Assembly: GCA_964016885.1 (NCBI GenBank)
Contig: OZ024760.1
Location: 5,518,001-5,582,000, forward strand
Reading direction: 5' to 3'
Origin: Eledone cirrhosa
Lineage: Eukaryota
Length of the DNA stretch: 64,000 nt
The position numbers and the translations under genes are program-made. Below, in pieces: positions 10,639 to 50,136 of the stretch (the stretch's first letter is position 1; the number at the start of each line of letters is the position of its first letter). A model generated the notes under the pieces. It was not told where the DNA came from and did no database searches. It was given only the letters and a program-made list of their open reading frames with translations.

Positions 10639-10757
10639 GTTTACAATTGTTTCGCTACTCCATATAATATTTCTGGATCAGATGACTATATATCATTATT
10701 GATCTGGATCAGTTGAAAATAATTAACATATTTAAAAACAGAGTGGCTCATCGGAAC
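10639..10757 (-). ncRNA. Degenerate hammerhead with very long (~95 nt) stem II
   Basis: GUU-CCGAUGA-GC C ACUC...GAGU A GC-GAAA-C(AAUU)G-UA|AAC. One core substitution (CUG to CCG). Same GAAACAAUUGUA end as the 23008 copy. Confidence 0.5.
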
Positions 10758-11044
10758 TTCAAAGGAATATAAATTAAAATAAGGAGAGAATGTTACATAA
10801 TATACTATAGACTACCTTTTTATTTTATGTAACTATCCTTTGTGAGTGACCCTGTCTCTATTTTTTGTACTTTTGAAGAAGGGCTAAAGCCTGACACATC
10901 GAACTTTCTTTCCATATAAAGCGTGAAACTAATAAGACTTTTTGTATCTTTGTTTTGTTGTTTCCTTGAACTGTATATATATATATATATAAACAAGAAA
11001 GTGTAAGTCAACAGGTTAAAAATTAACTTTGTTTATTCATAATC

Positions 11045-11103
11045 GTTGTTATATATATTTCGGTGATTACTATTATACAACAGCTATGACCTCATCAGAC
11101 AGC
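11045..11103 (-). ncRNA. Type I minimal hammerhead ribozyme
   Basis: GCUGU-CUGAUGA-GGU C AU...AU C ACC-GAAA-U(AUAU)A-UA|ACAAC. Confidence 0.75.
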
Positions 11104-11313
11104 TAAAATTTGAACAGGAAAAAAAACAGAAAAACATAACGATGGAATAAAGCTTGCTTCTGTTAATTCGAATTTTTTATATGCTCTGTGCTGAAATTTG
11201 TTGTTGTTTTCTCAAGGCACCAGTAGCATATATATGTATATATGTATAAGATTACTGTTGTAGGGATGTCTAACTGTTGGTTAATTAAATACTTTTTCTT
11301 GTTTAATTTATAG

Positions 11314-11387
11314 ACTTGACTGATGATGAACAGCAAGTCCTGATGACGATAAGGGAAAGGAAGCATAAGCTTGAACTGGATATCAAG
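11314..11387 (+). CDS. CYTH: Cytohesin-family Arf-GEF, coiled-coil exon (probable exon 2): (D/N)LTDDEQQVLMTIRERKHKLELDIK
   Basis: Pyrimidine-rich acceptor ttttcttgtttaatttatAG at 11312-11313 and donor GTAGGT at 11388. The 74-nt phase 1 to phase 0 exon resembles the cytohesin N-terminal coiled coil (DLTPEEQQELENIRRRKQELLADIQ-like) and joins in frame to 22591-22655. Confidence 0.88.
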
Positions 11388-11690
11388 GTAGGTGGTTGAG
11401 TATTATTACTACTAATATACACACTACACAGCCCCCCCCCCCAAAAAAAATGACTAGTATCTTTAGCAAGTCATATACAACCTTTTATAATGTAGCGAAT
11501 TGGCAGAGTCATTAGAACGCCAAATAGAATGCTTTGTGGCATTAGTTTCGGTTTTCTGAGATCTGTATACAGCAACTGCATTTGTAGATGCTCTCCTCCG
11601 CTCGCAGTGAGGATGATCTTTCACTACTTAAAACATGCTCCTGGCCTTCTTGTAAGCCCGGCAGAACTGTCCCTACTGATATATATACAT

Positions 11691-11832
11691 GGAGGCACAT
11701 GGCTTAGTGGTTAGAGCTTTGGCCTTGCAATCGAAAGGTTGTGAGTTCAATTCTCAGACCGGGTGATGTGTTGTTTCCTTGGGCAAGACACTTTATTTCA
11801 CATTGCTCCAGTTTACTCAGCTGTAGAAATGA
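11691..11832 (+). mobile_element. Second tRNA-derived SINE family (CORE/V-like ccttgggcaagacactt body)
   Basis: ggaggcacatggcttagtggttag (A-box), gtgagttcaattc (B-box), then tccttgggcaagacactttatttcac. Related copies at about 25420-25672(+) and 50340-50478(-). Confidence 0.75.
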
Positions 11833-12494
11833 GATGATAGGGACTGGGGTCCATATCATTCCACTGCAAAGTGGTCGTGGAGGTGCCAAGGCAAAAAAAG
11901 CACCCAGCACTCACTGTAAATGAGGTTGGTGTTAGGAAGGGCATCGAGCTGTAGAAATCAAGCCAGAATCAGTTCCTATCCCACCCTTGCAAGCAGGGGA
12001 AAAGAGGACGTAAAATGATGATGATGATATATATATATGTCGTACTGTTCATATTTAAATCAATATAGTGACTAAATGATATTCATATTATTAGTCTCAA
12101 TACCCCAGATCCATCTCACCATCTTCCTTAGAAACAATCCAAAGAATATATATATATATATATATATAATAAATAAATATATATAAATAAATATATATAT
12201 ATAAATAAATATATATATATATATATATATATATATATATATATATATATATATATATATATATATATATATATATAGTAATAATAATAAATTTGAAGAC
12301 TAAAATCCAAAGAGGGCTCGATAAGGATAAATATATATCAAATATATAAGAACCCTAGAGCAAATATATATATATATAAAATAAATAAATATATATATAT
12401 AAATAAATATATATATATATATATATTTATTTATTTTATATATATATATATATATATATGTATATATATATAAATATATATATATATATATATA

Positions 12495-46866: not shown

Positions 46867-46908
46867 ATATATAATCCTTATCGAGCCCTCTTCGGATTTT
46901 AGTCGTCA

Positions 46909-47095
46909 TAATTGTTTCTACTATTGGCACAAGGCCAGCAAATACCTAGTACATTACTGGTACTTTATTTTATCGACCCCGTAAGGATGAAAGGCAAAGT
47001 TAACCTCGGCGGGATTTGAACTCAGAATGGCAAGGGCCGTAACTCTATGCATCAAAGCATGGCGTCTGACTCTACTGACACTGCCAATCCACCGT
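46909..47095 (-). mobile_element. Same SINE family, full-length
   Basis: Same motifs as the 45727 copy. Confidence 0.85.
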
Positions 47096-49616
47096 TAGTC
47101 ATCATAATTATTATTACTATACACACACACACACATACACATATATATATATATATATATATATATATATATATATATATAACGAAGGAGTTGTGGTAAG
47201 GAACCAGATCGACCATAACACACCAGAGTACTCAATACTTAGGGTAGTAGAGTGGGTTATAGGAATATGTTTGACCCCGACGGCAGAGCTCAAGCTTTTT
47301 CGACGGCTATTTCTGGCTCAGTCCAGAAATAGCCGTCGAAACGGCTTGAGCTCTGCCGTCGGGGTCAAACATTTTCCCATATATATTTGTGCGTGCGCGC
47401 ACGTGTCATCTTTGCCTTTCATCCTTTCGAGGTCGATAAAAAAAAGTACCAAGTCTAATACTGGGGTTGATTCTTCCTCTAAATCTCTTTCTCATCTCCT
47501 CTCTCTCACTTTCTATCTTTCTCTGGAAGAAATCTGCTGTACTCAGACCTGGAGAGGGATGAGCTCCGCCAGGTTTAAAATGCCCAAGAAACACTGTATG
47601 TCAATACAGCACCCCTACCACTCTATCAGGAGTTATAGGACCATATATATATATATAGAGAGAGAGAGAAAAATACTGCAGGTAGCACATGGATAACATG
47701 TAACAAAATGAGTCCCTCATCAGTGATTTGCCGACGATCATAGATATTTCATTGCATTAAAAATCATATACCTCAAGTCGGTGCAATACTAACCAAAATA
47801 AGTTATTAGGACAATTGAAACGCGTAAAGCGAGTGAGACAGGAGAACAACAAAGAGTATAGCTAACCGTAGGGGAAAGAAACAAGCTTCAAAATTATTCT
47901 GTTTAGCATAAGCTAGGTGAATATATGAGCGCTTTTAGAAAACAGACCTGACACGAACGATGGCCATGTGAGAAGAGAGAAAAATAGCCTTCGTGGTATA
48001 TATATATATATATATATATATATATATATATGTATATATATGAGAATGGATTCAGTTTGAAACTGGTTAGACCATTACTCAACAGAGTACTCAATACAGA
48101 GTACACCAAGTGTGCTCTGTCTGTATATCTAGTGTACTCTGTAGTGTCCTGTGATGATCTGCCCAAGCCTTGTTAAACTAAGTACTGATTTGGTTTGTAA
48201 CGAGCCATCCAAGACTTGTTAGCAAAGAAAATGGAGGTAAAATAGTGATGATTGTAATGGTATGTCAATATGTCTCAGAAAATATTCATTAACCACCATT
48301 AATGGTATAAACAGATATATCTGTTTATAGGAGGAATGATATAAATAATTTCATATATATTTATATTTACACACACACACACATAAATATAGACATATAT
48401 ATATATATATATATATATATATATATATATATATATATATATATATATATATATATATATATATACACTGCACTGCCACCCCAACCTTGTTATGTTGGAA
48501 GTTATTAAGTCACCACCATCACCACCACCACCACTACTACCACCATCACCACCATCACCACCACCATCACCACCACCATCACCACCACCATCACCACACC
48601 ACACCACTCCACAACCTCTATCGTTTTGAGTAATTAAAACATTACAATTATATTTCTGCTCCACACCATCTGTTCCATAGATCTCTCTCTCACACACACA
48701 CACACACACACACCTAGAGACATCCAGGCACACACACACACACACACACACACCTAGAGACATACACCTGCGTTAACATACATACACACCTATACATTTA
48801 GACACACACATTCCTGTATATCTAGACATAAACATGAACATACACAGACATAGACACACATGTACACAAACACAGGCACACACATTCTCAGATACCTATA
48901 CAAACACACACATTCTCAGATACATATACAAACACACACATACACACATACACACAAACACAGGCACACACATTCTCAGATACATATACAAACACACACA
49001 TAGACACACATGTACACAAACACAGGCACACACATAGACACACATGTACACAAACACAGGCACACACATTCTCAGATACATATACAAACACACACACACA
49101 CACACACACACACACACACACACACACAGGCACACACATTCTCAGATACATATACAAACACACACATTCTCAGATACATATACAAACACACACATTCTCA
49201 GATACATATACAAACACACACATACACAGGTACACACATTCTCAAATACATATACAAACACACACACAAACACAGGCACACACATTCTCAGATACATATA
49301 CAAACACACACATACACACAAACACAGGTACACACATTCTCAGATACATATACCAACACACATACACACACACATTCTCAGATACATATACAAACACACA
49401 CATATACACACAAACACAGGTAGACAGATACATGTTTGATCAGGTAATGTTAAAGACTTAAGTTAATGTTATTTAGCCCTAGGTCAGAATTGACCTGTTT
49501 ATCTCTTGGATTATTATAATAACAGTAGGTCAACAACCACACAGACACTTATACATACAATATATATATATATATACGATATTAACAAATGGAAACTATA
49601 TTGATAAAACCATATT

Positions 49617-49681
49617 TATTTCCTTATACATATTTCAAGGACACCAAGTTAAATTATGGTGTGCTTTCATCAGATAAAATA
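49617..49681 (-). ncRNA. Type I minimal hammerhead ribozyme (left arm of large inverted repeat)
   Basis: Near-identical reverse-complement copy of 49791-49854, with tcatcag at 49667-49673. Confidence 0.8.
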
Positions 49682-49790
49682 TAATATAGATCAGTTTTAT
49701 AAATAAATATTGACATACCCTTAAAAAATGCAACCATTATTGTTGGAAGCTCCCGGATAGACTATTTATTTATAAAACTGATCTATATTA

Positions 49791-49854
49791 TATTTTATCT
49801 GATGAAAGCACACCAAATTTAACTTGGTGTCCTTGAAATATGTATAATGAAATA
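49791..49854 (+). ncRNA. Type I minimal hammerhead ribozyme (right arm of large inverted repeat)
   Basis: UAUUUUAU-CUGAUGA-AAG C ACACCAA(AUUUAAC)UUGGUGU C CUU-GAAA-U(AUGU)A-UA|AUGAAAUA. Intact core and 8-bp stem I. Confidence 0.85.
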
Positions 49855-50070
49855 AATATGGTTTTATAAATATAGTTTCCATTTGTTAATATCGTATGTT
49901 TACTCCAAATACTTGTTGAGTGCTTTATATCAGTTATAAAAATATTTGCTTGTTGTATCCCAACAATTTAAATAGAACTTTTTCATATATATATATATAG
50001 ATATATATATATATATATACACATATTATACAAAATATTAATAAATGGAGACATTCACATAATCAAAATA

Positions 50071-50136
50071 TGTTTTATTATATATATTTCAGAGGTACTG
50101 TGCTGTTTTTTCAGTACGTCCTCTTCAGATAAAATA
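50071..50136 (-). ncRNA. Type I minimal hammerhead ribozyme
   Basis: UAUUUUAU-CUGAAGA-GGA C GUACUG...CAGUAC C UCU-GAAA-U(AUAU)A-UA|AUAAAACA. Confidence 0.8.

Follow-up and report, generated by a model that had tools for sequence, protein, structure and literature searches.

Hammerhead ribozymes are a recurrent feature of Penelope-like elements (PLEs). Those of the Hydra clade encode a reverse transcriptase (RT) plus a GIY-YIG endonuclease at the C terminus within one open reading frame (ORF), marked by RW[K/R], DKT and CxCX5C motifs and the lack of CCHH (Craig et al. 2021, PMC8557442). The Hydra PLEs with hammerheads in that paper include one from an octopus, Hydra-1_Obim, and the role of the ribozyme in PLEs is called unclear. 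The present analysis concerns type I hammerhead motifs in 64,000 nt of the Eledone cirrhosa genome (assembly GCA_964016885.1, contig OZ024760.1, positions 5,518,001 to 5,582,000; hereafter the window). Six of these motifs belong to the pseudo-long terminal repeat (pLTR) families of coding Hydra-type PLEs, and a mismatch at the fourth base pair of stem II is a conserved structural feature.

Like the Hydra-clade elements of PMC8557442, the copies described here lie in (TA)n targets, occur as inverted 5'-truncated insertions and carry a hammerhead with a palindromic stem III near the 3' end. They differ in being ~4.1 kb long rather than <3 kb, with a tail of ~90 nt where 30-40 bp is described for PLEs, and in having at least 7x10^4 copies where that paper reports only a few further families. 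Judged by eye, the Hydra rows of its File S2 show stems II of 3-7 bp without a C.Y mismatch (Y, C or U) at pair 4 and stems III of 2-4 bp, and the Hydra-1_oBim hammerhead differs in sequence from the motifs found here.

The minimal PLE hammerheads of Cervera and de la Pena (2014, PMC4209133) are similar in their long helix II, short helix I and palindromic 15.2-16.2 region. That study also describes many heterogeneous covarying families per genome, mostly solitary copies from truncated PLEs, and opposite-strand pairs 100-700 bp apart, and it proposed cleavage as dimers. Its consensus has an unpaired base after A9, a G10.1-C11.1 pair and a continuous helix II, whereas here pair 1 is variable or open and pair 4 is open. 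The C.Y mismatch is in none of the rows of its Fig. S3 as judged by eye, although its search descriptor may have excluded such motifs, and its hammerhead loads are thousands per genome against at least 71,658 here. The PAc Poseidon element of Anolis (Frangieh et al. 2024, PMC11167929) is alike in its AT-rich targets, its uncut RNA template and a one-sided tail that is explained by RT starting internally at two sites 3' of the hammerhead, as is proposed below, but it belongs to another clade, its ORF starts inside stem II and its tail length differs. Animal non-LTR (long terminal repeat) retrozymes (PMC7229834; bioRxiv 10.64898/2026.07.22.740005) share the type I fold and a 1-bp palindromic stem III (axolotl HHR_Amex1), have a very high copy number (126,247 in axolotl) and have been proposed to originate from PLEs. 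Retrozymes consist of short units repeated in tandem and make the canonical contacts between loop 1 and loop 2, whereas what is described here are the ends of coding elements, dispersed and either truncated or inverted. An octopus repeat annotation (PMC13282606) lists Penelope families, and the words 'hammerhead' and 'ribozyme' are absent from the portion of its text consulted.

PLE hammerheads, long covarying helices II, palindromic stems III and opposite-strand pairs are thus known already. The element is of a known kind, and what appears new is the structural subtype with the C.Y mismatch, together with the very high number of its copies. A study by Lunse, Weinberg and Breaker (RNA Biol 14:1499) reportedly, to go by its title, deals with small PLE-tied hammerhead variants that cleave as dimers, and may already hold this subtype or the U4C core described below. 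A search of the literature found no description of the C.Y subtype; Lunse et al. 2017, Arkhipova et al. 2017, Repbase and Dfam could hold one.

Hammerhead motifs in the window

The window was scanned for the layout stem I-CUGANGA-stem II-GAAA-Y-N4-R-UA-stem I, with 200 local dinucleotide shuffles as the control. The layout returned 12 matches against a shuffle mean of 0.43, and nine motifs were kept by the stem filter against a mean of 0.015 (maximum 1). The original prediction, made from the letters alone, listed ten motifs of this layout with an intact core, and the core (C3 U4 G5 A6 N7 G8 A9, G12 A13 A14, A15.1-U16.1 and H17) is present in all ten and invariant in alignment A1. Its wider count of about 14 hammerheads also holds, with four variant or decayed motifs (24016-24068, 10639-10757, ~19062 on the minus strand and ~42502 on the plus strand) making up the number. 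The stem II triplets it gave are as quoted, as are the pair-4 mismatches, which are C.C except for U.U at 23008 and C.A at 13772. Pair 1 is loose in these last two motifs (A.C and A.A, respectively) and pair 2 is broken in 14066. The ten motifs do not form one family as had been proposed, but at least seven.

Stem pairing and the open fourth pair of stem II

Covariation was measured in an alignment of 20 diverse motifs, eight from the window and 12 genome representatives; these were chosen by the authors, are related and were pre-filtered for pairing, so that the percentage paired is inflated and counts do not represent independent events. Within it, both sides have changed at all six stem I pairs and at nine of ten stem II columns. 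The covariation score is 0.656 against 0.270 in shuffles, and there are 41 further pair types against 30.7, values that none of 500 shuffles reached, in line with the covariation originally claimed. Pair 4 of stem II is closed in 0/20, while at pairs 3 and 5 G-C, A-U or U-A are interchangeable. An alignment of held-out regions, fitted to a covariance model, gave a score of 0.560 against 0.245 with pair 4 open in 22 of 24 motifs. A shifted register, with an unpaired base after A9 and a G10.1-C11.1 pair, was considered as the cause of the mismatch and rejected, as sliding the 3' partners by 1-3 columns lowers pairing to 32-46% and the score to 0.09-0.17.

The state of pair 4 was also assessed free of this selection by a scan that set no condition on it, yielding 20 motifs in 400 kb of genome taken without selection, plus five further window hits. 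C10.4, the 5' base of the pair, is present and the pair open in 20/20 and 5/5 of these, respectively, which upholds the prediction of a conserved mismatch. Across the 25 motifs the 3' partner is C in 18, U in six and A in one. Pairs 3, 5 and 6 are closed in 25/25, and pair 1 is A-U in 11, G.U in five, G-C in four and open in five. Single-strand folding reproduces three base pairs, the mismatch and a second helix for family A, to which the 49791 motif belongs, and for the 23569 motif.

Stem III consists of one base pair and a palindrome that differs between families. Its hexamer is self-complementary in 258 of 270 motifs when G.U is allowed and strictly so in 141, with the outer pair demanded by the scan, and the motifs are, as had been described, type I hammerheads of the minimal form whose stem III is palindromic. 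Closing stem III in a monomer costs about 3 kcal/mol, which together with the palindrome fits cleavage as a dimer. Two local scans with Rfam found no hammerhead family at E<=10, and none is among the 150 of 316 whole-window matches listed; the motifs are a hammerhead class missed by Rfam.

Variant stems occur beside this type. The 10639 motif has a U4C core change that is fixed across its family (10639-10757 on the minus strand and loci L067, L216 and L339), a branched stem II of ~90 nt and a position 3' of a Hydra-type ORF, and represents a natural variant of the catalytic core. Further hammerhead families with stems II of 80-100 nt and palindromes CGAUCG, CAAUUG and CUCGUG were seen at L199:4085-4192 (-), L029 (-), L096 (-) and L238 (+).

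Carrier elements

The insertion at 49577..49985, complete and set in (TA)n, equals the pLTR of a coding Hydra-type PLE. Compared with the 5' end of the full-length copy at locus L079, identity is 83% along all 416 nt, and with the pLTRs of L058 and L080 it is 93%. The order in family A is pLTR with hammerhead, tail, a 742-aa RT/GIY-YIG ORF, a 3' untranslated region of 1.3 to 1.7 kb and a second pLTR with hammerhead. The pLTR and tail stand directly ahead of an open 742-aa ORF in L079 and L080, with the start ATG 187 nt 3' of the cleavage site, and L128 has a hammerhead at each end, 4136 nt apart. L123, L128 and L129 have a stem II letter-identical to that of the 49617 copy, and their adjoining ORF sequence is 84-94% identical to L080. 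Opposite-strand hammerhead pairs 3-4 kb apart also flank RT/endonuclease ORFs. Downstream of family A ORF ends a hammerhead was found in 11 of 33 cases, all of family A; the other 22 gave no hit, and most loci are short of flank. The family B hammerhead (50071) lies behind a second Hydra-type ORF at 3/3 ends, this ORF being about 45% identical to that of family A, and the 10639 type lies behind a third at 2/3 ends by pattern (L067, L216), with L339 added by BLAST.

These data assign the 17521, 44235, 49617, 49791, 50071 and 10639 motifs to pLTR families of RT and GIY-YIG encoding Hydra-type PLEs, and not to the unmatched, non-coding retroelement family that had been suggested. The accompanying statement that no RT or GIY-YIG ORF lies beside the motifs is true of the window, where no Hydra-type ORF was found and no hit to other PLE-type protein queries was listed, but elsewhere in the genome ORFs flank the families of these six. 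The copies in the window are 3' ends lying in (TA)n, truncated and in many cases inverted, and the ORF is missing because 5' truncation has left only element ends. A fixed element with terminal inverted hammerheads, resembling a miniature inverted-repeat transposable element, was rejected, as inversion points vary between copies and arms reach 2.7 kb into ORFs.

Smaller features of the family A copies include an arm fragment at 44000-44060 that lacks the hammerhead and starts near the cleavage site, and, at the 17521 copy's 5' junction, a perfect ~50-nt foldback (17595-17650). Relative to a diverged reference, the break in many family A copies lies about 76-115 nt upstream of the core, close to a small palindrome.

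The ORF combines RT and GIY-YIG marks (YRDD and VVY...YVG) and, in L079 and L080, carries RWR, DKT, CNCRNKSNC (CxCX5C), CDLC (CxxC) and CRH (CxH) without CCHH; its blocks agree by eye with the Hydra rows in the supplement of PMC8557442. An AlphaFold model reached a predicted local distance difference test (pLDDT) score of 89, with TERT as the best PDB match, whereas a model from the single sequence was unusable (pLDDT 35). The 4136-nt unit of L128 exceeds the <3 kb given for the Hydra clade, but size is descriptive rather than defining. On its motifs, the ORF is best placed as a Hydra-clade PLE.

The same genome also holds an abundant CCHH-type PLE (L338:3579-5240 and 5545; L003, L198, L199, L134, L070, L238), which we take to be Neptune/Nematis-like, with a canonical minimal hammerhead 190-305 nt past the ORF. 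That the mismatch hammerhead is common to this second clade was considered and rejected, as the motif with the GGUCACAG prefix behind the CCHH-type ORF is the canonical bulged minimal form without the mismatch. The mismatch subtype is therefore so far tied only to Hydra-type carriers.

Abundance

Over the 3.0-Gb assembly, the pattern with C on both sides of pair 4 has 71,658 exact matches, against one for the reversed control. The same pattern with a base other than C on the 5' side has 3,666, with 77 for the control. The repeat content and the named protein relatives (Argonauta, Octopus) point to an octopod cephalopod. A covariance model built from the eight window motifs and 12 genome representatives found 11 hits in the window, namely its eight inputs, the 49619-49679 copy, the 24016-24068 partner and the long 23008 motif. 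Outside, it found 15 hits in the adjoining 200 kb and 12 in 200 kb spread over 20 fixed places on other contigs. This puts the density at about 60-75 per Mb and the genome-wide number at roughly 2x10^5, a rough extrapolation from these 12 hits. The window, which had been called dense, has 11 hits in 64 kb, only about double the density of the adjoining sequence.

Hydra-type PLEs, described from few families, can thus be a major repeat class. With intact 742-aa ORFs beside the ribozymes, about 17 stem II clusters of three or more members and at least 7x10^4 copies, the genome amounts to a mutational scan done by nature, in which a single nucleotide outside the core stands out.

Insertion and the proposed role of the mismatch

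Insertion ends were mapped in 238 family A hits, a set biased to hammerhead-bearing copies. The 5' truncation and inversion are variable, while 3' ends fall at two fixed points in (TA)n, 106/238 near +50 and 103/238 near +140 nt 3' of the cleavage site, and TA runs flank 197 of 209 ends. These two positions match the two RT start sites of PMC11167929. In the same biased set no sign was seen of 5' ends set by ribozyme cleavage, an origin that was rejected. None of 15 near-full-length elements with a match starts at the cleavage site, and ten of the 15, one being the reference itself, cross the upstream hammerhead. AAUAAA stands at or just 3' of the predicted cleavage site (within ~20 nt) in nine of the ten window motifs, against an AT-rich background. 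It may be a poly(A) signal of the element, placed upstream of the first RT start site.

The motifs are very probably type I hammerhead sequences, six of them in coding Hydra-type pLTR families and the rest likely in related elements, which would cleave only as dimers or with the element's protein. In the mechanism proposed, the endonuclease would nick both strands of (TA)n, as for PMC11167929, and RT would prime internally at two sites to leave an inverted arm and a one-sided tail. The template RNA would be uncut or re-ligated at the ribozyme, and with such a template cleavage would be conditional on a tandem pLTR dimer or protein help. The self-complementary stem III would let two tandem copies form the active dimer, whose cleavage may trim or circularise multimeric transcripts (PMC4209133). 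Inverted hammerhead pairs cannot form this dimer within one transcript; read-through would instead give a near-perfect hairpin of ~130 bp. An invariant C amid covarying pairs favours a base-specific contact over plain destabilisation, and with no visible stem I partner the best guess is a contact with the element's protein or inside the folded dimer. The unpaired C10.4 thus likely makes a functional contact, which would have been inherited and kept by selection while neighbouring pairs covaried.

Several observations weigh against this account. Whole-motif folding z-scores are mostly weak, with only 2/11 below -2. The mismatch is not universal, as pair 4 is G.U or A-U in the main long-stem group with the CAAUUG palindrome and the 10639 type is instead mismatched, with C.A, at pair 3, and a conserved stem I partner base for C10.4 was not seen in alignment A1. 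The clade placement comes from motifs and not from a tree, Pfam is silent on the 742-aa ORF (RVT_1 hit only 2/68 alignment members) and a PDB sequence search with it was empty. The one PLE studied in vitro inserts without ribozyme cleavage, its hammerhead being both protein-needing and dispensable there (PMC11167929), and the 11045, 13772, 14066, 23008 and 23569 families are tied to no ORF in the sampled copies.

Two other explanations of the mismatch were weighed. It may be a mere attenuator, a weaker stem II that keeps the monomer from cutting its template before reverse transcription. For insertion the RNA does have to be unbroken at the cleavage site, the PLE hammerheads assayed in vitro act slowly (PMC4209133), one depends on protein (PMC11167929) and the 3' partner of C10.4 varies among C, U and A; yet the 5' base is C in 25/25 at a fixed place, which a mere destabiliser would not need, and attenuation by itself is considered unlikely. 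It is more improbable still that the mismatch is a functionless accident frozen by common descent, with the ribozymes as passengers. A single ancestor is possible for all families, Naiad PLEs proliferate without hammerheads (PMC8557442) and the CAAUUG group manages without the mismatch, but across families both bases have changed at the stem II pairs apart from pair 4 (nine of the ten columns tested), with C10.4 and the core unaltered. A bolder extension of the functional-contact reading, which we regard as doubtful, is that this is the densest hammerhead load among the reported ones found (at about 25-70 per Mb and no fewer than 10^5 copies), with the invariant unpaired C as a docking site that ties cleavage to the Hydra RT protein or the dimer and several short families riding on it non-autonomously. 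If true, the inverted pairs would in addition be a source, across the genome, of RNA hairpins that are long and perfect, for adenosine-to-inosine editing.

Families without a linked ORF

Non-autonomy, as originally proposed for all copies, fails for families A and B and the 10639 type, but is possible for the five families without a linked ORF. A colinear ORF was sought in 33, 35, 31, three and four copies of the 11045, 14066, 23569, 13772 and 23008 families, respectively, and none was found. These five may be non-autonomous, or else old and fragmented.

The broader proposal, that the window copies are a dedicated non-coding family mobilised in trans, is possible but somewhat doubtful, since coding ORFs flank the families of six motifs and refute it there. 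For the rest, the longest shared 5' extents are short, at 436 (11045, n=27), 481 (14066, n=27) and 844 nt (23569, n=25) against 2,747 in family A (n=61). An endonuclease profile hit the upstream sense strand in 0/33, 0/35 and 1/31 copies of the 11045, 14066 and 23569 families, the single hit (L349) lying beyond an inverted arm. Opposite-strand pairs in these families are no more than about 1.2 kb apart among the first 100 listed places, one convergent pair excepted, and at the 14066-family locus L343 a 1170-nt unit in which no ORF was detected is repeated in tandem. Against this proposal, the minor families are older, mostly 82-90% identical to the window copies, and many of their sampled flanks reach only 1.5 kb. 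Two 23569-family copies (L327, L345) have in common a further stretch of ~330 nt about 0.8-1.4 kb upstream of the hammerhead, resembling decayed coding sequence and ending in a CxC motif; its stops at identical places may mean that the master copy was already broken.

It is highly improbable that these copies represent non-LTR retrozymes of the animal type, which are short repeats in tandem from which circular RNAs arise. The one-base-pair palindromic stem III resembles axolotl HHR_Amex1 (PMC7229834), and the 14066 pattern counts 266 forward against 104 reverse matches genome-wide, with other families balanced, which suggests a tandem array of about 160 copies. None of the ten motifs lies in a tandem array among the matches listed, however, with one 1170-nt tandem pair seen in the 14066 family, and the dispersed or inverted copies, one-sided tails and ORF linkage are typical of PLEs.

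Feature coordinates and other repeats

Table 1. Hammerhead motifs and associated insertions in the window (C3, position of core base C3).
Feature	Position	Strand	Remarks
11045 motif, type I hammerhead, GGUC-AUAGCU family	11044..11104	-	C3 11098; C.C pair 4; no ORF linked
13772 motif, type I hammerhead, AGUC-ACAUG family	13770..13824	-	C3 13818; C.A pair 4; decayed; no ORF linked
14066 motif, type I hammerhead, GCUC-AGGCU family	14064..14125	-	C3 14119; C.C; partly decayed; no ORF linked
17521 motif, type I hammerhead, family A subfamily	17523..17584	-	C3 17578; C.C; tail split by another repeat
23008 motif, long-stem-II hammerhead, CAAUUG palindrome	23006..23097	+	C3 23012; U.U pair 4; separate older group; no ORF linked
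23569 motif, type I hammerhead, AAUC-ACGAU family	23568..23620	-	C3 23614; C.C; shortest stem II; no intact ORF linked
Decayed inverted partner of 23569 hammerhead	24016..24068	+	core changed to CUGGUGA and GGAA
44235 motif, type I hammerhead, family A subfamily	44237..44298	-	C3 44292; C.C
Insertion around 44235 motif	44194-44443	.	one arm, spacer and inverted tail; second arm missing
49617 motif, type I hammerhead, family A (inverted partner)	49619..49679	-	C3 49673; stem II identical to ORF-bearing L123, L128, L129
49791 motif, type I hammerhead, family A	49793..49852	+	C3 49799; C.C pair 4; predicted cleavage after A at 49846
50071 motif, type I hammerhead, family B (GGAC-GUAC)	50073..50134	-	C3 50128; C.C; tied to second Hydra-type ORF
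10639 motif, U4C core (CCGAUGA), CAAUUG palindrome	10639..10757	-	~90-nt stem II; C.A pair 3; 3' pLTR of third Hydra-type ORF family
Decayed short-stem hammerhead, other repeat family (~19062)	19020..19068	-	3-bp stem II, longer stem III; not mismatch type
Decayed short-stem hammerhead, other repeat family (~42502)	42497..42548	+	4-bp stem II, 4-bp stem III; not mismatch type
PLE-type insertion in (TA)n, complete	49577..49985	.	equals pLTR of coding Hydra-type PLE
Tail-less arm of 49577..49985 insertion	49577-49709	-	
Spacer of 49577..49985 insertion	49710-49762		
Inverted 5'-truncated arm of 49577..49985 insertion	49763-49894	+	
One-sided tail of 49577..49985 insertion	49895-49985		~90 nt

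Further CUGANGA matches at 26761 (-) and 29042 (+) have the loose layout only and were not taken as hammerheads, nor were those at 11320, 11340 and 25639. The window also holds minisatellite arrays at 2700-4304 (35-nt unit), 14989-16379 (77 nt), 27500-28343 (60 nt), 30532-32348 (114 nt), 35233-35991 (48 nt) and 38321-38786 (49 nt), and the 48/49-nt unit is also dispersed, at 17729-17903 and elsewhere.

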